Below the pieces are notes generated by a model. That model saw only the letters and a list, made by a program, of their open reading frames with translations. It ran no database searches and was not told the origin of the DNA. This document shows, one piece after another, positions 1,354-13,115 of a stretch of 64,000 bases of DNA (the stretch's first letter is position 1; each line of letters opens with the position of its first letter). A program made the translations under genes and the position numbers. The stretch lies in assembly GCF_003018255.1 (NCBI RefSeq), contig NZ_CP027440.1. One strand, given 5' to 3'. The DNA is from Escherichia coli. GTDB taxonomy: Bacteria > Pseudomonadota > Gammaproteobacteria > Enterobacterales > Enterobacteriaceae.

Positions 1354-3834
1354 ATGGGTATTCAGAATTTCGACCACTCACACCACAAGCTCAAAATTCG
1401 CGGCCTGAAAAGCCCGGTGGACGTGCTGACGTTTACGGGCCGGGAACAACTCAGCGCACCCTTCCGCTACGACATTGAATTTACCAGTACCGATAAAACC
1501 ATCGAGCCGGAGTCGGTGCTGATGCAGGATGGCGCATTCAGCCTGACGGCACCGCCGGTACAGGGAATGCCGGTACAGACTGCCCTGCGCACCCTGCACG
1601 GCGTCATTACCGGCTTTAAACATCTCTCATCGTCACAGGACGAAGCCCGTTACGAAGTGCGCCTTGAACCCCGTATGGCGCTGCTTACCCGCAGCCGCCA
1701 GAACGCCATCTACCAGAACCAGACGGTGCCGCAAATCGTCGAAAAAATCCTGCGCGAGCGGCACCAGATGCGCGGTCAGGACTTCGTGTTTAACCTCAAA
1801 AGCGAATACCCGTCCCGTGAACAGGTGATGCAGTACGGTGAGGACGACCTGACGTTTATTTCACGCCTGCTGTCAGAAGTGGGTATCTGGTTCCGCTTTG
1901 CCACCGACGCCCGGTTGAAAATCGAAGTTATCGAATTTTACGACGACCAGAGCGGCTACGAGCGCGGGCTGACGCTGCCGCTTCGCCATCCTTCTGGGCT
2001 GTTTGATGGTGAAACGGAAGCCGTATGGGGGCTGAACACCGCGTACAGCGTGGTGGAAAAAAGTGTCTCCACGCGGGACTACAACTACCGTGAAGCCACG
2101 GCGGAAATGACCACAGGCCAGCATGACGCCACCGGGGGCGATAACACCACTTACGGCGAAGCCTACCACTATGCCGACAACTTCCTGCAACAAGGCGATA
2201 AAGAGGCAGCGGAAAGCGGCGCGTTTTATGCCCGTATCCGTCACGAACGCTACCTGAATGAACAGGCCATTCTCAAAGGCCAGAGCACCAGTTCACTGCT
2301 GATGCCGGGGCTGGAGATAAAAGTTCAGGGCGACGACGCGCCTGCGGTGTTCCGCAAGGGCGTGCTGATTACCGGCGTGACGACCAGCGCGGCGCGTGAC
2401 CGCAGCTATGAGCTGACGTTCACGGCGATACCGTACTCAGAGCGCTACGGCTACCGTCCGGCGCTTATCCCCCGCCCGGTCATGGCCGGAACGCTCCCGG
2501 CGCGGGTCACCAGCACGGTGAAGAACGATATCTATGCCCATATCGACAAAGACGGGCGCTACCGGGTCAACCTCGATTTTGACCGCGATACGTGGAAACC
2601 GGGTTATGAGAGCCTGTGGGTACGCCAGTCGCGCCCGTATGCGGGAGACACCTACGGCCTGCATCTGCCGCTGCTGGCGGGAACGGAGGTCAGCATCGCG
2701 TTTGAGGAAGGCAACCCGGACCGACCGTATATCGCCGGGGTAAAGCACGACTCGGCGCACACCGACCATGTGACCATCCAGAACTACAAGCGTAACGTGC
2801 TGCGCACCCCAGCAAACAACAAAATCCGCCTCGACGATGAGCGCGGCAAAGAGCATATCAAGGTCAGTACCGAGTACGGCGGCAAGAGCCAGCTAAACCT
2901 CGGCCATCTGGTGGATGCCGGGAAACAGCAGCGCGGCGAAGGCTTTGAACTGCGTACCGATATGTGGGGCGCAGTGCGGGCGAAGAAAGGCATCTTTATC
3001 AGCGCCGATGCGCAGGACAAGGCTCAGGGTCAGGTGCGGGAAATGGCTCCGGCAATGGCAATACTGGATGGCGCACAGTCACAGATGAAGTCGCTGTCCA
3101 CTGATGCGCAGACGGCGAATGCCGATCCGGCAGATCTGTCATCACAGATAGCGCTGTTGCAGCAGAGTGTAAAAGATCTGACGCAGGCGGTGATCCTGCT
3201 AAGCGCACCCAAAGGCGTGGCGATCGCCAGCGGCGAGCACCTGCAACTGGCGGCGGCAAAGAATGTGATAGCCAACGCAGGCAACAACGCCGATGTCGGC
3301 GTGGTGAAAAATATGTTTATCGGCGTGGGACAGGCGCTGAGCGTGTTTGTGCGTAAAGCGGGCATCAAGCTGTTTGCCAATAAGGGCGCAATCTCGGTGC
3401 AGGCGCAGAACGACTTGATGGAACTGTTGGCGAAGAAGGAAATCATCATTACCAGTACCGAAGATGAAATTAAAATCACGGCGAAGAAAAAGATCACCCT
3501 TAACGGCGGTGGCAGCTACATCCGGCTGGATGCCTGTGGGATAGAAGCGGGAACGCCGGGAGAATATAACGTTAAGGCGGGATATTATGGGCGTAAGCCG
3601 AAGGCGAAGCTGACGCCGGAGCTGATGGCGTTTCCGGTGATTGAGGGTGGAGACTATTCTCGCTGTTTTAAATTTTTTGATGACGAAAATATCCCATATC
3701 GTAATGTTAAGTATATAGCCAATTTTATTGATGGAACAAAAAAGGAAGGTGTCACTGATGATGAGGGATGCACCGAAACATTTTTTAGTGATAAAGAAGA
3801 AGAAATTGAAATTGAGATTTTACTTGGTGTTTAA
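1354..3834 (+). CDS. vgrG: T6SS spike protein VgrG with C-terminal extension
   Basis: 826-aa ORF. The N-terminal two thirds read as a gp27/gp5-like VgrG (N-terminal block ...GLKSPVDVLTFTGREQLSAPFRYDIEFTS...). The last ~60 codons are AT-rich and unlike the core. SD AACGGAGG precedes the ATG. Confidence 0.85.
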   Translation: MGIQNFDHSHHKLKIRGLKSPVDVLTFTGREQLSAPFRYDIEFTSTDKTIEPESVLMQDGAFSLTAPPVQGMPVQTALRTLHGVITGFKHLSSSQDEARYEVRLEPRMALLTRSRQNAIYQNQTVPQIVEKILRERHQMRGQDFVFNLKSEYPSREQVMQYGEDDLTFISRLLSEVGIWFRFATDARLKIEVIEFYDDQSGYERGLTLPLRHPSGLFDGETEAVWGLNTAYSVVEKSVSTRDYNYREATAEMTTGQHDATGGDNTTYGEAYHYADNFLQQGDKEAAESGAFYARIRHERYLNEQAILKGQSTSSLLMPGLEIKVQGDDAPAVFRKGVLITGVTTSAARDRSYELTFTAIPYSERYGYRPALIPRPVMAGTLPARVTSTVKNDIYAHIDKDGRYRVNLDFDRDTWKPGYESLWVRQSRPYAGDTYGLHLPLLAGTEVSIAFEEGNPDRPYIAGVKHDSAHTDHVTIQNYKRNVLRTPANNKIRLDDERGKEHIKVSTEYGGKSQLNLGHLVDAGKQQRGEGFELRTDMWGAVRAKKGIFISADAQDKAQGQVREMAPAMAILDGAQSQMKSLSTDAQTANADPADLSSQIALLQQSVKDLTQAVILLSAPKGVAIASGEHLQLAAAKNVIANAGNNADVGVVKNMFIGVGQALSVFVRKAGIKLFANKGAISVQAQNDLMELLAKKEIIITSTEDEIKITAKKKITLNGGGSYIRLDACGIEAGTPGEYNVKAGYYGRKPKAKLTPELMAFPVIEGGDYSRCFKFFDDENIPYRNVKYIANFIDGTKKEGVTDDEGCTETFFSDKEEEIEIEILLGV

Positions 3835-3866
3835 AAATACTACCCTTAATTATTAAAGAGAAAAAA

Positions 3867-4601
3867 ATGAGCAAAAATGTAATATTAAGTAATGGGGAAA
3901 GAGAAAATCCTTCTCCGCTGATCTATGACAAGCATAAAAAGCACTGTATTTTTCGTACAAAGACATTACTTAGTGAAGAGAAAAAAGAAGACGAAAAATG
4001 TACTGTATCAGTTGTATTTATTGATCATGAGGGGTATATAAGAAATGCTGGAATTATAAAACACACAGTCCCTGAACTTGAAGAAGGTCGCATGCCTAAA
4101 ATTAATGCAATAATATTGCATAGAACAGATTCTTCAACAATAAATGGTACACTTGCTAGTTTTTCTAAAGGCATTGGAACTCATTTTATTGTTGAAAAAG
4201 ATGGTAATATATACCAGGCTGCAAGCCTATTTGTATATACCAGCCATGTGGGGAAGATAAAGTCTCGATGTAAGGAGGAAAAAACATGGTCGTCTGAAGA
4301 AAAAAAGAAAACAGAGGCATTCGGATGGAATGCTAAGAAGATACATGATCATGAAAAAATTAAACAATATCCTTATAGATATCCATATAATATGGACAGT
4401 GTTGGCATTGAGGTTATTGCATTATATGATAAAAAAAATAAAAAATGGGAGTCTGCTACAGACTCTCAAAAAAAATCAATTGAGAAACTTGTAGATATAA
4501 TAAAAAATATTTATGAGTTAGAAGATAGGGATGTTTATGAACATGATAAAATTAGTTATAAAACAGAAGGTGAAGGCGCTGATCTCTATAGTGTTAATTA
4601 A
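3867..4601 (+). CDS. Putative T6SS effector, Amidase_2 (PGRP/AmpD/T7-lysozyme-like) N-acetylmuramoyl-L-alanine amidase domain
   Basis: 244 aa with no signal peptide. Motifs ILHRTDS, THFIVEKDGNIYQ, SVGIEVIALYD and EHDKIS resemble Amidase_2 zinc-amidase signatures. AT-rich gene immediately downstream of vgrG. Confidence 0.55.
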   Translation: MSKNVILSNGERENPSPLIYDKHKKHCIFRTKTLLSEEKKEDEKCTVSVVFIDHEGYIRNAGIIKHTVPELEEGRMPKINAIILHRTDSSTINGTLASFSKGIGTHFIVEKDGNIYQAASLFVYTSHVGKIKSRCKEEKTWSSEEKKKTEAFGWNAKKIHDHEKIKQYPYRYPYNMDSVGIEVIALYDKKNKKWESATDSQKKSIEKLVDIIKNIYELEDRDVYEHDKISYKTEGEGADLYSVN

Positions 4602-4980
4602 TTTCTTTTTTTGTTCAAATAGTTACTCCGAAGAAAAAATAGAGATAATAAACATTAATAAACCAATATATATAGGTACCAATCAATCAGATAAGGTGCT
4701 TATTACTGCGTGTAATCATTGGGTGCTTAATTCTAGAGATATTATAGACATATTCAATCTAAGTATAAAGCATGATGATTATGGCGAAATAAACAGAATG
4801 TATTATTGGTTACCTTGTGAAATTAGAGGGAGACTAATGTATGACGGAATAGAATGGAGTTTTGTTATCAATGCTGCTGCAACAGCAATGTGGATGAGCA
4901 ATGATAAAGAGATTTACTGGGGATGCAATAAAAAAGCATGCGATAATTTCTTTTTATTACCATATGATGGGATGAGGTAA
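4543..4980 (+). CDS. Putative secreted (periplasmic) immunity protein for the upstream amidase
   Basis: Start is ambiguous (ATG 4531/4543 or GTG 4570) and overlaps the effector 3' end. N-terminus MIKLVIKQKVKALISIVLINFFFCSNSYS has the form of a Sec signal peptide. Small Cys-rich AT-rich ORF. Confidence 0.45.
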   Translation: MIKLVIKQKVKALISIVLINFFFCSNSYSEEKIEIININKPIYIGTNQSDKVLITACNHWVLNSRDIIDIFNLSIKHDDYGEINRMYYWLPCEIRGRLMYDGIEWSFVINAAATAMWMSNDKEIYWGCNKKACDNFFLLPYDGMR

Positions 4981-5085
4981 ATCACAGTTAATAAAGCAAA
5001 AACATTATGGACAAGTGAATTAATCAGATAGTTCAAGCACCTTGAGATTCATTGTATTCATATTTCAGAATAACGGATTATTACA

Positions 5086-6300
5086 ATGCCCATCCGACTT
5101 AATACCATTCCCGACGCAGAACCCTATCCCGCACCGCCAGCCCGCATTAAATGGCTGTCAGCCTTATTACTGATGCTGTCTGTTGGTGTGGCAATAACCT
5201 CATTATTCGCCAGCGATGAACTGGCAAAAAACGGCCCATATTTCTGGGGGCTGGCCTGCGGCGTGCCTGCTTTTATCTGGTCACTGGTCGGTTCGGTGCG
5301 CTGGCTGGTATTTGTCACTCAACATATTCGTGCCGATGCCTGGAATCAACGTCGCGAAGAAGTCATTTTGCAGGAAACACGGCGGGGACGACGGGCGTTG
5401 CAGATACTCAGTTTTTCCGTACAAACCGCGCTGAATGGTGATTCCGTCGCAGAAACTACAACAGCATTTCTGGCGCGTCATCAGGTGTTGAATACTTACG
5501 CTGATTTGCGCGGAGAAGATACCGTGCGTCGCAGTGTCATTCCCGTATTAACCAATAAACCGGTTACCGGGCGTTTATCCGAAATTATTTCCCGCCTTTT
5601 TATTGATATCAGACCGCAATTGTTTCTGCTGCCCCCTGATTTTCATATCAACGTACTACTGGAAATTGATGCGCCGCTTTCAGGGGCCTCCGTGAGAACT
5701 ATCTGGCAGGACGAATGGCAAAAAGCCGGACTCCCCGAAGCCCGTCTGTTTTCTGCCCCGGAGCCGGGGCTGGCCGCCGTGGACGACTGGCTGGACAACT
5801 TTATTCAGGAAAAGGCCGTACTGCTGGTGATTTCCGTGCGTCTGGAACCGAAGAACCCGGAACGGACGGCAGAATCCGCCACCGCGCTGTTGCTGGCAAA
5901 CCGACTGACGCAAACCGCGCTGACGCCGCTGGCCCTGCTGCATCGTCCTGAACGTATCACAGATACGGAGATGATGGCGTCAGGCATTGCACAGGCGCTG
6001 GACTGGATGCCGGTGCAGCCAGATGCCATATCCGGCATGTGGACAGTCGAACTGAACAGGGAACAGCGCGCCTCGCTGCTGTCATCTAACCAGCCGTTTA
6101 CTCAGGAAGCCCTGATGTACGAGCTGGATGCCTTTCTGGGGTGCTCCGGACCGGCAGCGCCGTGGCTGTCCGTCGCTGCGGCAACGCTGGCGGCAATACA
6201 ATCACAACACCCCCAACTGACGCTCAGCGGCGTTCAGAACGGGCATTATTCATGGGCGACCATGGTGTCGCCATTCGTTTCCCCTCAGGAGGCATCATAG
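5086..6300 (+). CDS. T6SS-associated inner-membrane protein of unknown function (two N-terminal TM helices plus ~330-aa soluble domain)
   Basis: 404-aa ORF. Hydrophobic stretches WLSALLLMLSVGVAITSLFA and FWGLACGVPAFIWSLVGSVRWLVFV lie near the N-terminus. Composition is GC-rich like the T6SS core genes. Placed between the cargo module and tssM. Confidence 0.5.
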   Translation: MPIRLNTIPDAEPYPAPPARIKWLSALLLMLSVGVAITSLFASDELAKNGPYFWGLACGVPAFIWSLVGSVRWLVFVTQHIRADAWNQRREEVILQETRRGRRALQILSFSVQTALNGDSVAETTTAFLARHQVLNTYADLRGEDTVRRSVIPVLTNKPVTGRLSEIISRLFIDIRPQLFLLPPDFHINVLLEIDAPLSGASVRTIWQDEWQKAGLPEARLFSAPEPGLAAVDDWLDNFIQEKAVLLVISVRLEPKNPERTAESATALLLANRLTQTALTPLALLHRPERITDTEMMASGIAQALDWMPVQPDAISGMWTVELNREQRASLLSSNQPFTQEALMYELDAFLGCSGPAAPWLSVAAATLAAIQSQHPQLTLSGVQNGHYSWATMVSPFVSPQEAS

Positions 6301-9683: not shown

Positions 9684-11286
9684 ACTGTTGCAAAAGCTGA
9701 CCCGTAGCTGTTTTGCCGACCGGGACGCACTGGACTCGGCGCGAACACAGGCGGCGCTGTGGCAGACATGGCTGCTGCCGGTGACGGCAGATACGCCGGT
9801 CGGGGAAGACCCCGGCTACCACGACGATTTCCTGCGTATCCGCGACGAGATGAACAAACTTTCCGGCGCGGATACGGACCTTATCTGCCAGCTTGCCGAA
9901 TCCCTGCTGCTGACGCAGGCAAAAGACGTGCGCATCGCCACTTACTATATCTGGGCGCGACTGCACCGCGATGGCGAACGCGGACTGGCTGAGGGGCTGG
10001 CGCTGTTAGCCGGACTGGTGGAACGCTTCGGTGCGCAACTGCTGCCCTCGCGCCCGGCAAGCCGAAAAATGGCGCTGGAGTGGCTGGCAGGGGAAAAGAT
10101 GCTCGACAGCCTTGCCCGCTACCCGGAAGTGGCAAAAGAGGATTTTGCGAACATTGTTGCCGCTCTTAATCAACTGACGGTTTCCTTCACTGCATGGCCC
10201 GAAGACCAGCATTCCCCCTCCCTGATGCCGCTGATTAACGCGCTGGAATCACGTCTGGCGCAGTCGGGTGGGATGAACGCGGTGGTGCCGCAGAACAGCA
10301 GCGGCGTTCCGGCACCGTCTTCCCCGGTGGATGCGCCACAGGTACAGACCATCACTTCCGGGCGCGACCTGCTCGACCAGGCGAAAGTGCTGGCCCGTTA
10401 TCTGAACGAACAGCCGCAGGGCTGGCTTTCAGCACACCGGCTGATGAAAACCCTGCGCTGGGACACGGTGCATGAACTGCCGCCGGATGTGGACGGAAAA
10501 ACCCGGCTGGCCCCGCCGCGCACAGAATCACGCAACCAGCTTAAGCGGCTGTATGCTCAGCAGAACTGGACGGAACTGCTGGAGCAGGCCGACCTGATGT
10601 TCAGCACCGGCGTCAGCCATTTCTGGCTGGACATTCAGTGGTATCTGCATCAGGCGCTGACTAAGGCGGGCGCACCGTGGGACAGGTGGACAGCGGTTAT
10701 CCGTCAGGACCTGGCGTTACTACTGGAACGCCTGCCGGGGCTGGAAAATCTGGCATGGAACGACGGCACGCCGTTCGCCGATGAGTTGACGCGCAACTGG
10801 ATAGCGCAGCAGGTCATGATGCGGGAAGACGGCGCATGGCTTGCGGGGAAAGCCGCTGTACCGACAGACGACGCCACAAACGACGTACTGGCGCTGGAGC
10901 CGGAAGCGCTGGAGATGGCAGACAGTCAGGGCGTGGAAGCGGCGCTGGGCTGGATACAGACCCGTCCGGGCATCACCACGGCACGCCAGCGCCTGTTATT
11001 GCGACTGCTGATGGCGCGGGTGGCGGAACAGTACGGTAAAAACGAGATGGCGCTCCTGCTGCTGGAAGAACTGGATATCGCCGCACAGGGGCTGACGCTG
11101 ACGCAGTGGGAGCCGGACCTGCTGTTTGAGGTAAAAGCCCGACAGCTGAAACAGCTGCGCCTGCGGGCGCACCGCTATGCGGATAAAGCCCTGCTGAACC
11201 GAAAAATGGAAATCCTGCTGGGAACGCTGGTGACAATAGATCCGGTACGGGCAGCGGTATTGTGTGATACGCAACATAAGGACTGA
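9676..11286 (+). CDS. tssA: TssA (ImpA_N-domain) T6SS baseplate/cap protein
   Basis: N-terminal ImpA_N-like block (...LLPVTADTPVGEDPGYHDDFLRIRDEMNKL...). ATG at 9676 overlaps the tssM stop (ATGAGTGA); an alternative ATG lies at 9649. Confidence 0.8.
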   Translation: MSELLQKLTRSCFADRDALDSARTQAALWQTWLLPVTADTPVGEDPGYHDDFLRIRDEMNKLSGADTDLICQLAESLLLTQAKDVRIATYYIWARLHRDGERGLAEGLALLAGLVERFGAQLLPSRPASRKMALEWLAGEKMLDSLARYPEVAKEDFANIVAALNQLTVSFTAWPEDQHSPSLMPLINALESRLAQSGGMNAVVPQNSSGVPAPSSPVDAPQVQTITSGRDLLDQAKVLARYLNEQPQGWLSAHRLMKTLRWDTVHELPPDVDGKTRLAPPRTESRNQLKRLYAQQNWTELLEQADLMFSTGVSHFWLDIQWYLHQALTKAGAPWDRWTAVIRQDLALLLERLPGLENLAWNDGTPFADELTRNWIAQQVMMREDGAWLAGKAAVPTDDATNDVLALEPEALEMADSQGVEAALGWIQTRPGITTARQRLLLRLLMARVAEQYGKNEMALLLLEELDIAAQGLTLTQWEPDLLFEVKARQLKQLRLRAHRYADKALLNRKMEILLGTLVTIDPVRAAVLCDTQHKD

Positions 11287-12698
11287 TGGCAATGGGAACA
11301 GGCTACTTTCTGGTCAGGGGGGACAAAACCACCTGCGGCGGCAAAATTATTGAAGGCGCGGACGACCATACGATCATGGGTATCCCGCAGGCGCGGGATA
11401 TGGACCGGGTCACCTGCGGCAGATATCCGGGAATGTTTATTATTGTGGGCGGCGTTCCTGAAACAGATATTCACGGCAGGCTGATGGCGGGGACGCTGGA
11501 CAGTCAGAGCAGTTGCCCGTGTAAGGCACGGTTTATTGCGTCAATGATGGATGATACGTATGAGACGGATGACGGGGAAAGTGAAGCGGAACAACATGCG
11601 CAGTCGGCGAAAAAGGATCTGACTTCTGGTTCTGATTCATCCTCTGATGATGTAAAACTGGATTACAGAATTAAATTATCAGGTAATAAGATACTGACGC
11701 CACTGAATATACCTGATTATAAAGAAATGATTAGCGGTGGTAGTACGAAGAATACAGAAAAAATAGATTTTACCATCACAAATAAAGGCGATGAGGCTGA
11801 AGCGCTTTCTCTGGAAGTGCTTGATGGTAATGAAGTGATTTATAGTGAACGGCAGACCGGTAAATATTGTGATAAGGGAGAGCATGCCTGGCAATGGGAT
11901 GGCTACAGTAATCAAGGCATACTGGATACAACTAAGATAAAAAGCAAATCACTACTCGTAAGACTGATTGCTTTATGTGGTGATATGATGATAAAAGTTG
12001 ATTATCCATTGAAAAATGCTGCGAAAGAAGAAGAGTGGGTTGATGTAAAAGTTGACAGAAATAATAAAGTGGTCGATATAACATGGAGATTATCTGTTAA
12101 GGATAGCGGTACAAAAGGCAGTAACCCTGAGTTATCGCCAATACCTTATAGCGATTTAGTTAGTCTTACTAAAAATGGCGTGGAGTTTTACTGGTCACGA
12201 AATGGAAGTCGCGGCGGGGGAATTGGTGGTAATATCGTTACAGCGATTGGGGTTTTTAAAGTAAATGTAAAGGCTGAGATAAATATTACTCCATCTATGC
12301 GAACTTTTGATTTGATATCATCGTTAGATCCAGATATGCAGTCGTCGGTAAGTCTTTTGGGGTTTGAAAAAATATACCATAACTATGGTGGCTATTATAA
12401 TAACAGCAAGGATGAAATAAAGGCTCTTCTATATAGTAATGAAAGATATAAATGGGATAGTGCTCATGAGATGGGACATAAAGTTATGGATAAATATGGT
12501 TCTGAATCATGGACACATAAGGGGACATCCACGCGGGGTCAAAGTACCATCCCTAATACTCCAATGCCATCTTCAGGAGAGATTGATATAATGAAATATG
12601 CAGATAGCTATGCACCTGATAGATATAAGAGATTGGTCGCGGCAGATGAAGATGTTCAGGCATTGATCTGGTTGAGCAGGGTGAGTTTTAATGATTAG
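11286..12698 (+). CDS. PAAR-like domain protein with C-terminal HExxH (zincin-like) putative toxin domain
   Basis: N-terminus (GDKTTCGGKIIEGADDHTIMGIPQARDMDRVTCG...) resembles PAAR/DUF4150 spike-tip domains. C-terminal region is AT-rich and contains HEMGH. ATG overlaps the tssA stop (TGATG). Confidence 0.6.
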   Translation: MAMGTGYFLVRGDKTTCGGKIIEGADDHTIMGIPQARDMDRVTCGRYPGMFIIVGGVPETDIHGRLMAGTLDSQSSCPCKARFIASMMDDTYETDDGESEAEQHAQSAKKDLTSGSDSSSDDVKLDYRIKLSGNKILTPLNIPDYKEMISGGSTKNTEKIDFTITNKGDEAEALSLEVLDGNEVIYSERQTGKYCDKGEHAWQWDGYSNQGILDTTKIKSKSLLVRLIALCGDMMIKVDYPLKNAAKEEEWVDVKVDRNNKVVDITWRLSVKDSGTKGSNPELSPIPYSDLVSLTKNGVEFYWSRNGSRGGGIGGNIVTAIGVFKVNVKAEINITPSMRTFDLISSLDPDMQSSVSLLGFEKIYHNYGGYYNNSKDEIKALLYSNERYKWDSAHEMGHKVMDKYGSESWTHKGTSTRGQSTIPNTPMPSSGEIDIMKYADSYAPDRYKRLVAADEDVQALIWLSRVSFND

Positions 12699-12713
12699 AA
12701 TAATTGTTTTTTA

Positions 12714-13115
12714 TTGTTTTTTTTGAGTGGGTGTACTTCACAAAAAGAGTATTCCAATATAGTCAGGATTGAGAATAGATGCTCCTCAGATATCGATGTC
12801 TTTATTCAGGGATATGTTTCCGGTTCTACGCTGATTTATCAGCATAATATACACTTGCCAGTTGGTGATAGTGATGTATTAGTATATTTTTCCACGGCAG
12901 ATATTGATGATGGTTTTAAATATGAGGGGGCATTCATGATATATAAAGATAGCCGCGGTGAATTGGATTATCCATTCACCATTTCATTGTCAGGGCGCGA
13001 AAAAAAATTTGGGAAGAATGACTTAATTAGATTATCACGAGATATTTCAACAAAAGACGACAGAAAATACGGAGTTATAAGATATATAATCGACAGTCAG
13101 GAAATTTGCCCGTGA
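12714..13115 (+). CDS. Small AT-rich ORF, candidate immunity protein; 5' end probably disrupted by a homopolymer frameshift
   Basis: The track ORF starts at a TTG. An upstream ATG at 12691 (overlapping the PAAR stop) encodes MIRIIVFYCFF and then hits a stop after a T8 tract. One extra T would give MIRIIVFYCFFLSGC..., a lipoprotein signal with lipobox. Confidence 0.4.
   Translation: MFFLSGCTSQKEYSNIVRIENRCSSDIDVFIQGYVSGSTLIYQHNIHLPVGDSDVLVYFSTADIDDGFKYEGAFMIYKDSRGELDYPFTISLSGREKKFGKNDLIRLSRDISTKDDRKYGVIRYIIDSQEICP

Follow-up and report, generated by a model that had tools for sequence, protein, structure and literature searches.

A stretch of 64,000 nucleotides from an Escherichia coli chromosomal region (RefSeq assembly GCF_003018255.1, contig NZ_CP027440.1), hereafter referred to as the window, harbors a type VI secretion system (T6SS) cluster into which an AT-rich cassette is set. 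The cassette begins inside the gene for the spike protein VgrG and encompasses the last 63 codons of vgrG, an open reading frame (ORF) for a protein of 244 amino acids (aa) that is predicted to be a zinc-dependent amidase, and an overlapping small ORF for its putative immunity protein. The region is 99.8% identical to that of the avian pathogenic E. coli (APEC) strain O2-211, as well as to MDR_56 and others. In APEC O2-211 it lies within a complete T6SS cluster adjoining two tRNA-Met genes, and the gene order is tssB, tssC, tssK, tssL, an OmpA-family gene, hcp, tssH, vgrG and the amidase gene, followed by two hypothetical genes, tssM, tssA, PAAR, tssF, tssG, tssJ, and tssE. We read this cluster as the T6SS2, subclass i1, of the E. 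coli field, a naming that follows PMC12282107. Within the complete cluster, the amidase gene starts just 32 nt past the end of vgrG.

The composition profile of the region falls to a G+C fraction of 0.26-0.34 at about 3600-5100, with flanks of 0.55-0.65 on both sides. An original prediction, made from the letters of the DNA, had described an AT-rich block spanning about 60 vgrG codons and the next two ORFs, and the profile confirms it. Comparison with E. coli that carry other cassettes (loci L091 and L092) places the left homology breakpoint at nt 3645, which sets the vgrG portion at 63 codons, and the right breakpoint at nt 5086 or 5014. The cassette is 99-100% conserved across about 79 E. 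coli genomes and, because the gene pair also recurs across phyla, it does not represent a chance pair of ORFs. Within 3400-5300, a sequence scan found promoter-like sites to be no more numerous than expected by chance, and no terminator-like site 3' of the immunity gene. Five terminator-like sites were present in the same interval, against about one expected, and all of them lie within genes. The coordinates of the features are collected in Table 1.

Table 1. Features of the cassette and of the vgrG gene in which it begins. Positions refer to the window unless a locus is named.
Feature	Position	Strand	Basis
vgrG, 826 aa: gp27/gp5 spike core, DUF2345, C-terminal tail	1354..3834	+	TIGR01646 E=1.7e-138, TIGR03361
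AT-rich exchangeable cassette	3646..5085	.	G+C 0.26-0.34 in a T6SS cluster of ~0.60; breakpoints; slot variants over 1294 genomes
Cassette-specific VgrG tail, last 63 codons, transthyretin-like; putative effector docking site	3646..3834	+	Breakpoint 3645, tail identities, 6sjl alignment
Predicted Zn-dependent N-acetylmuramoyl-L-alanine amidase effector, 244 aa, no signal peptide	3867..4601	+	Pfam, AF2, Foldseek, homologs
Disordered N-terminal ~45 residues of the amidase, NPSPLIYDKHK motif; putative VgrG-recognition segment	3867..4001	+	pLDDT below 50-63
Amidase_2 catalytic domain	4098..4553	+	Invariant columns; hhalign to E. coli AmpD
Invariant catalytic-domain residues	H85 4119-4121; E182 4410-4412; H226 4542-4544; K232 4560-4562; E236 4572-4574	+	
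Predicted periplasmic immunity protein	4537..4980	+	147 aa from ATG 4537; 145 aa from 4543
Predicted Sec-type signal peptide of the immunity protein, MNMIKLVIKQKVKALISIVLINFFFCSNSYS / EE	4537..4629	+	Leader kept in orthologs
Alternative cassettes in the slot corresponding to window 3646-5085	L091 1784-2938; L092 1758-3557		

The predicted amidase

The amidase ATG is preceded by an A-rich AAGAG. The Pfam family Amidase_2 (PF01510) is the sole significant Pfam match of the protein, covering residues 78-229 with an i-Evalue of 3.4e-11 and model positions 4-122 of 131, and a precomputed PF01510 match is also held by 24 of the 25 homologs that were aligned with it (alignment A1). A single-sequence search of the PDB returned just a fucose lectin, matched spuriously through repeats. 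A profile search returned amidases, although weakly, and a comparison of folds was needed. The AF2 model, built from an alignment of 26 homologs, has a pLDDT of 85.5, rising above 90 over residues 45-240. Its best Foldseek match in the PDB is AmpD (2y28, E=8.7e-6), and matches at a probability of 1.00 were returned to AmpD, amidase endolysins, peptidoglycan recognition proteins (PGRPs), AmpDh2, AmpDh3, and T7 lysozyme. The top 31 PDB matches (E<=1e-3) are confined to AmpD, AmpDh2, PGRPs, T7 lysozyme, and amidases of the endolysin type. The Amidase_2-like character that the original prediction had given to this ORF is thus borne out by a significant hidden Markov model match, with which the mixed alpha/beta fold of AmpD, PGRPs, and T7 lysozyme agrees. 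The motifs on which that assignment was based, ILHRTDS, THFIVEKDGNIYQ, SVGIEVIALYD, and EHDKIS, are all found in the translation, at family columns that are invariant or close to it.

Five residues of the catalytic domain, H85, E182, H226, K232, and E236, are invariant across the 26 homologs. H85 is followed by an invariant R-T, H127 is also invariant, and E182 stands within the sequence DSVGIE. In an hhalign comparison with E. coli AmpD, E182 lies opposite the catalytic E116 and H226 opposite the zinc ligand H154. The same comparison reveals a conserved insertion of about 35 residues, at about residues 130-164, that is missing from AmpD. When the alignment is extended without gaps, E236 falls opposite AmpD D164, and on this basis the third zinc ligand of the enzyme is probably a glutamate. 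The enzyme is predicted to hydrolyze, in a zinc-dependent manner, the bond between N-acetylmuramic acid and L-alanine (MurNAc-L-Ala).

Signal peptides were judged throughout by hand-made hydropathy criteria rather than by SignalP. In the amidase, the mean Kyte-Doolittle score of an 11-residue window does not exceed 0.33 anywhere in the first 50 residues, so that the protein has no signal peptide, as had been proposed. The disordered N-terminus is distinguished by a motif, NPSPL(I/V)Y(D/N)K, that is limited to the enterobacterial homologs and is missing from those linked to PAAR genes. All four of the motif-bearing enterobacterial homologs whose neighborhoods were examined come after vgrG. Since the motif is found in homologs linked to vgrG and not in those linked to PAAR, this distribution suggests that the disordered N-terminus may be the part that docks on the VgrG tail.

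The small downstream ORF

The frame of the small ORF is open over 4531-4980. Depending on its start, the gene shares 59-65 nt with the end of the amidase gene, to which it is probably translationally coupled. The start at 4543, the fifth codon of the open frame, was the one originally proposed; it remains likely, and so is the ATG at 4537, as an AGGGA at 4527-4531 precedes them both. In the RefSeq annotation, produced by the prokaryotic genome annotation pipeline (PGAP), the protein starts at GTG 4591 (129 aa), a choice that would cost the protein most of its signal peptide, including the charged N-region and half of the hydrophobic core. This start is probably too far downstream; the ATG codons are favored over it because of the AGGGA and because the leader is conserved in orthologs. 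The protein begins as expected for a Sec substrate, with four lysines, an 11-residue window scoring 2.67, and then CSNSYS/EE, in agreement with the signal peptide first proposed for this overlapping ORF.

The mature protein belongs to a family of 1234 cluster representatives at 50% identity, in which four cysteines are conserved, and it is predicted to be a disulfide-stabilized periplasmic protein. Its AF2 model is of high confidence (pLDDT 96.1), and no solved structure in the PDB resembles it. The protein has no match in Pfam or NCBIfam, and none of 43 homologs matches a Pfam family.

The tail of VgrG

In genomes that are 99.8% identical, PGAP labels the VgrG protein "type VI secretion system Vgr family protein". 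A DUF2345 domain occupies residues ~603-743 (E=3.1e-49), and beyond it lies the tail. The tail has no Pfam match; it aligns with residues 714-818 of VgrG1 from enteroaggregative E. coli (EAEC; PDB 6sjl), a segment that includes the transthyretin-like (TTR) domain. In EAEC, this domain of VgrG1 binds the cargo protein Tle1 (PMC10433429). The AT-rich vgrG end that the original prediction had placed in the effector block is cassette-specific and homologous to a known cargo-binding domain.

Compared with other VgrG tails, it shares 62% identity with that of an amidase-linked VgrG from Intestinirhabdus and only 32% and 44% with those of two E. coli alleles, although the cores of the latter are 94-95% identical. 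The VgrGs that precede amidase homologs in Salmonella and Stenotrophomonas have the same kind of tail domain on different cores. By these sequence comparisons, the VgrG tail tracks the effector and not the species, and we infer that it is to this tail that the effector binds.

Exchange of the cassette in E. coli

Among 5426 complete E. coli genomes, 1294 match this region of the cluster, and 71-79 of these have the amidase cassette. It is thus missing in about 94% of the matching genomes, and the amidase is a rare accessory gene, found in about 1.4% of complete E. coli genomes. The immunity gene is present in the same 79 genomes as the amidase, and no orphan immunity gene without the amidase was found in E. 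coli. Other cassettes take up the slot elsewhere. The commonest of these, among the ranked matches that were sampled, encodes an SLT-domain protein (a transglycosylase) together with a 149-aa ORF and is found in sequence type 131 (ST131). Another encodes a 262-aa protein with an HELTH (HExxH) motif and a 308-aa protein with a signal peptide. Both are AT-rich, with a G+C fraction of 0.32-0.34. The segment 3646-5085 is most likely a horizontally exchanged effector module, which would comprise a VgrG tail, an effector and an immunity gene.

Two further observations were made on genomes that carry the SLT cassette. In the ST131 strain 4993, tssM (ImcF-related), which lies beside the cassette (L091 4287-4830), is annotated as a truncated pseudogene, unlike the tssM ORF of the window, which is full length. 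Fragmentation of tssM is frequent in ST131, where it has been described for the T6SS-i2 cluster (PMC12282107). The record NZ_CP026085.1, labelled "E. coli DH5alpha", also contains this T6SS region with the SLT cassette, and its truncated vgrG is annotated only as a DUF2345 domain protein. We would not expect this in a K-12 derivative, and the record may be mislabelled.

Related loci and co-evolution of the pair

Scanned at one genome per species, the amidase yielded 79 loci, distributed among Enterobacterales, Lysobacterales, Helicobacter, Flavobacteriia, Chitinophagaceae, Burkholderiales, Myxococcota, and Mucispirillum. An immunity homolog is found immediately 3' of the amidase in 63 of them. 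Where close homologs of the amidase were examined, a homolog of the small ORF was present in all six lineages and a spike gene in five. Amidase homologs are found behind VgrG in Intestinirhabdus, Budvicia, Salmonella and Stenotrophomonas, and behind PAAR in Pseudomonas sp. Hp2, Xenorhabdus, Lysobacter, and Luteimonas. The settings are varied. In Intestinirhabdus, the amidase follows a DUF2345-type VgrG in an orphan island, whereas in Salmonella it follows a VgrG of a different core type within a T6SS cluster. In Pseudomonas sp. Hp2 and in metagenomes, the amidase gene overlaps the end of a PAAR gene, with tssM and tagF downstream, and in Xenorhabdus it is preceded by DUF4123 and PAAR genes. 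The homolog in Archangium has the small ORF, with no spike gene nearby.

The amidase domain is also found within larger proteins. In Corallococcus, it forms the C-terminal domain of a 1873-aa Rhs protein, where it comes after the Rhs core (TIGR03696, residues 1576-1658), and in Fluviicola it lies at the end of a 1206-aa protein that also has lysozyme and muramidase domains. Long "fusion" ORFs in the high-G+C loci L021, L041, and L047 are artefacts of an ORF caller that over-extended them and were not counted as fusions. Many Lysobacterales homologs (Lysobacter, Luteimonas, and Stenotrophomonas; for example, L023 5662-6627) share a conserved N-terminal region of about 130 residues (...PYDASHPDHARYQKV...GQWNDAESRN...), and those of Helicobacter and Mucispirillum (L051, L066, L080) have N-terminal regions of roughly 270-1200 residues. 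None of these regions has a match in NCBIfam, and they may be unrecognized trafficking domains.

The amidase and the immunity protein appear to have evolved together. Over 58 pairs, their divergences are correlated with r=0.81, a value reached in none of 2000 permutations, and the immunity protein diverges the faster of the two (mean identity 27%, against 42% for the amidase). Among 67 immunity homologs, 60 have a hydrophobic leader and 33 a lipobox-like motif. Two or three tandem immunity paralogs follow the amidase in loci L030, L037, L038, L064, and L080, which belong to Luteimonas, unclassified Proteobacteria (metagenome-assembled), and Helicobacter. In Gilliamella, the immunity ORF (L061 2683-3486) contains an internal duplication, such that two copies of the domain are found in a 267-aa protein.

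Relationship to known systems

The closest functional precedent is AmpDh3 (PA0807) of Pseudomonas aeruginosa, which is listed with PA0808 as a toxin-immunity pair of the H2-T6SS (PMC10281587; PMC12494544). AmpDh3 is a zinc amidase of the Amidase_2 fold, reported to hydrolyze the peptidoglycan of prey, and its gene lies beside that of its immunity protein. The two amidases are, however, very distant, with about 14% identity and a profile E-value of 0.88. The E. coli protein lacks the extra C-terminal part of AmpDh3 and has a different arrangement (244 aa, as opposed to about 255-259 aa), and, unlike AmpDh3, it has the insertion of about 35 residues and directly follows a TTR-tailed vgrG. AmpDh3 is the only zinc Amidase_2-fold T6SS effector found in the literature searched. 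The original remark that a PGRP-type T6SS amidase would be unusual was thus a fair one, tempered by the precedent of AmpDh3/PA0808. Two other candidates were set aside as precedents. Atu4347 of Agrobacterium, considered as a PGRP-type T6SS amidase, is shown by the literature to be a papain-like Tae4. The Zn-dependent amidase TseP-N of Aeromonas is compared by its authors with PDB 3SLU and with different residues, and searches of their paper gave no mention of AmpD or N-acetylmuramoyl.

The better-known T6SS amidases, Tae1-Tae4 with their immunity proteins Tai1-Tai4 (Tse1, Ssp1, Tae4), resemble what is predicted for the E. coli pair in that they are small cargo proteins that cut amide bonds of peptidoglycan in the periplasm of prey and have an adjacent gene for periplasmic immunity. 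As papain-like (NlpC/P60) endopeptidases with a Cys-His dyad, the Tae proteins attack bonds inside stem peptides or the links between them (PMC10469887, Table 1), whereas the E. coli protein is a zinc Amidase_2 enzyme that is predicted to cut MurNAc-L-Ala. With Amidase_2 as the only significant Pfam match and zinc amidases as its only fold matches, it falls outside the Tae families. For the spike, the nearest parallel is EAEC VgrG1-Tle1, which has the same sequence of gp27/gp5, DUF2345, and a TTR-like tail of about 60 residues, with the cargo gene immediately 3'. There, however, the cargo is a phospholipase rather than an amidase, and the T6SS is of another subclass.

AmpD itself, the best structural match, has the catalytic glutamate of the GIE motif and the second zinc histidine in common with the E. 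coli amidase. AmpD is a cytoplasmic 1,6-anhydro-MurNAc-L-Ala amidase and a conserved housekeeping enzyme of peptidoglycan recycling in the Enterobacteriaceae. In contrast, the E. coli amidase is a rare accessory gene with a periplasmic partner and scores far below the NCBIfam cut-off for AmpD. The Rhs and PAAR polymorphic toxins are alike in that the same amidase domain is found after an Rhs core in Corallococcus, or after PAAR genes, with an immunity gene downstream; unlike the Rhs fusions, the E. coli amidase is a free-standing cargo. The one relevant passage found in a survey of polymorphic toxins (Zhang et al. 2012, PMC3482391) describes a different toxin, an FlgJ-like glycohydrolase, and no Amidase_2 toxin.

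A survey of Salmonella effectors (PMC12994826) and its supplements do not name this amidase family. A second study (PMC10469887) lists 243-aa "amidase" candidates in the variable region SPI-6 VR2, which have signal-peptide partners and bear the label Reprolysin_4 or M64. It may be that they are the Salmonella orthologs, given that the Salmonella homolog P0009 is also 243 aa long. No paper was found that mentions the accessions of the E. coli pair.

Proposed function and alternatives

We consider it likely, with good confidence, that the cassette encodes an AmpD-like zinc amidase acting as a T6SS toxin, a Sec-exported periplasmic antidote, and the matching VgrG tail. This favors the original proposal of a VgrG-delivered amidase with a periplasmic immunity protein, which is supported by the domain and fold of the enzyme, its conserved catalytic residues, the compartment signals of the two proteins, the linkage to spike genes and the co-evolution of the pair. 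Secretion, mode of docking, the bond cleaved, toxicity and neutralization we infer from these, and the events would run as follows. The amidase would be made in the cytoplasm, where its disordered N-terminal ~45 residues would dock on the transthyretin-like tail of the VgrG encoded upstream. On firing of the T6SS, the spike would carry the amidase into the periplasm of a neighboring Gram-negative cell. There the enzyme would cut the MurNAc-L-Ala amide bond of the prey, such that stem peptides and their cross-links would be stripped from the glycan strands and the prey cell weakened or lysed. In the producer and its kin, the immunity protein would bind and block the amidase in the periplasm and thereby afford protection.

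Several points weigh against this reading. A recognizable VgrG or PAAR gene lies directly upstream in just 19 of the 79 loci, as counted by an insensitive search that employed a few single-sequence queries, and the N-terminal regions of many Lysobacterales and Helicobacter homologs match nothing in NCBIfam. The solved amidases are only weakly similar in sequence (best profile E=2.4e-4; E=0.88 for AmpDh3). The third metal ligand would be E236 and not the Cys or Asp of the characterized family members, and the position of Tyr46 in T7 lysozyme seems to be occupied by Thr, as judged by a comparison of motifs alone (GTHF against GYHF). Finally, work on the E. coli T6SS2 in APEC and in neonatal meningitis E. 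coli (NMEC) addresses mostly virulence, as its titles and abstracts indicate.

The last two structural features also lend themselves to a different explanation, in which the protein has the Amidase_2/PGRP fold without being a MurNAc-L-Ala amidase. It might instead only bind peptidoglycan or muropeptides, or hydrolyze another amide, and its toxic mechanism would differ. To the proposed non-canonical glutamate and the apparent Thr for Tyr of the GYHF motif can be added the insertion of about 35 residues, which lies beside the active site and is not found in AmpD, and the fact that many PGRPs are non-catalytic. Non-catalytic PGRPs typically lose their zinc ligands, however, whereas in this family both zinc histidines, the AmpD-type glutamate of GIE, and the conserved lysine are invariant across phyla. 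The tightly co-evolving periplasmic partner, moreover, argues for an activity that is harmful in the periplasm. We regard a different activity as unlikely.

A slightly smaller chance is given to the amidase being a housekeeping helper of the T6SS, which would open the peptidoglycan of the producer locally for assembly of the T6SS membrane complex or tail, with the small periplasmic protein as its regulator. Such a role in assembly has reportedly been proposed for TagX in Acinetobacter and for MltE in EAEC. That the gene has vgrG on one side and tssM on the other, inside the core T6SS cluster, accords with such a role, as does the commonest alternative cassette, which also provides a cell-wall enzyme in the form of the SLT transglycosylase. 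Yet the amidase has no signal peptide or membrane anchor, and therefore only secretion could bring it into the periplasm of the producer. Different cassettes occupy the slot, and one that is missing from ~94% of the 1294 genomes ill fits a structural requirement. Elsewhere this domain occurs as an Rhs fusion and in linkage to PAAR. Its partner, moreover, shows the rapid divergence and the tandem arrays that are typical of immunity proteins.

The last explanation, a phage endolysin remnant or a cytoplasmic AmpD-like recycling amidase that sits in an AT-rich insertion and has nothing to do with the T6SS, is highly improbable: it could appeal to the structural matches, which are best to AmpD and to phage and prophage amidase endolysins, and to the PGAP name, which is just N-acetylmuramoyl-L-alanine amidase, but a tblastn search of 50,697 phage genomes gave no match at E<=1e-3, no phage genes lie nearby, NCBIfam has no family or equivalog for the amidase (family members reach 20-38 bits, where the AmpD cut-off is 143), and unrelated lineages would not be expected to share, by chance, a place behind VgrG, PAAR or Rhs. 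These three explanations thus fit less well than the toxin-antidote reading, because of the missing export signal, the polymorphic slot, the Rhs and PAAR links elsewhere, and the absence of phage relatives in that search.

Taking the toxin-antidote reading of the cassette together with the related loci, we lean, if only narrowly, toward the broader view that the pair represents an experimentally uncharacterized and widely distributed toxin-immunity family. Its toxin would be an AmpD-like zinc amidase domain, with the conserved insertion of about 35 residues and with Glu where the third zinc ligand is usually another residue, spread over Proteobacteria, Campylobacterota, Bacteroidota, Myxococcota, and Deferribacterota. 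It would be delivered as VgrG-TTR cargo, as PAAR-linked cargo, as an Rhs tip or as part of a multi-hydrolase fusion. The neutralizer would be a four-cysteine family of periplasmic proteins or lipoproteins, with a predicted fold that has no solved relative.

Neighboring genes of the cluster

Between the cassette and tssM, a 404-aa protein (window 5086-6300) is about 94% conserved whichever cassette is present. It has a hydrophobic N-terminal segment and no NCBIfam match, and it looks like an uncharacterized accessory component of this T6SS subclass. Further along, at window 11286-13115, the C-terminal portion of a 470-aa PAAR-domain protein contains an HExxH motif (...SAHEMGHKVMD...), and a 133-aa ORF that follows it begins with MFFLSGCTSQ, which is lipobox-like. 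From these features, the two appear to form a second effector-immunity pair in the same T6SS cluster.

Significance

Among T6SS toxins, the best-known class is that of the cell-wall-degrading effectors whose immunity proteins are periplasmic, and the logic of the cassette is in this respect unsurprising. Nearly all of the characterized T6SS amidases are papain-like, however, and a zinc Amidase_2 family would widen the known set of cell-wall effectors. For E. coli, the presence of at least three alternative AT-rich cassettes in the slot downstream of vgrG indicates an antibacterial role for the T6SS2 and an incompatibility from strain to strain. As this system has been studied mainly for the virulence of APEC and NMEC, the amidase would, if the prediction is true, provide it with a concrete antibacterial cargo. 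If the broader family is real, it would form a class of its own among the cell-wall effectors of the T6SS, beside Tae, Tge, and Tlde. The immunity family, with its 1234 representatives, could serve to mark such toxins, and it may offer a new way to inhibit an amidase. It is in the breadth of this toxin-immunity family, and in an immunity fold without a known relative, that the further value of the cassette may credibly lie.

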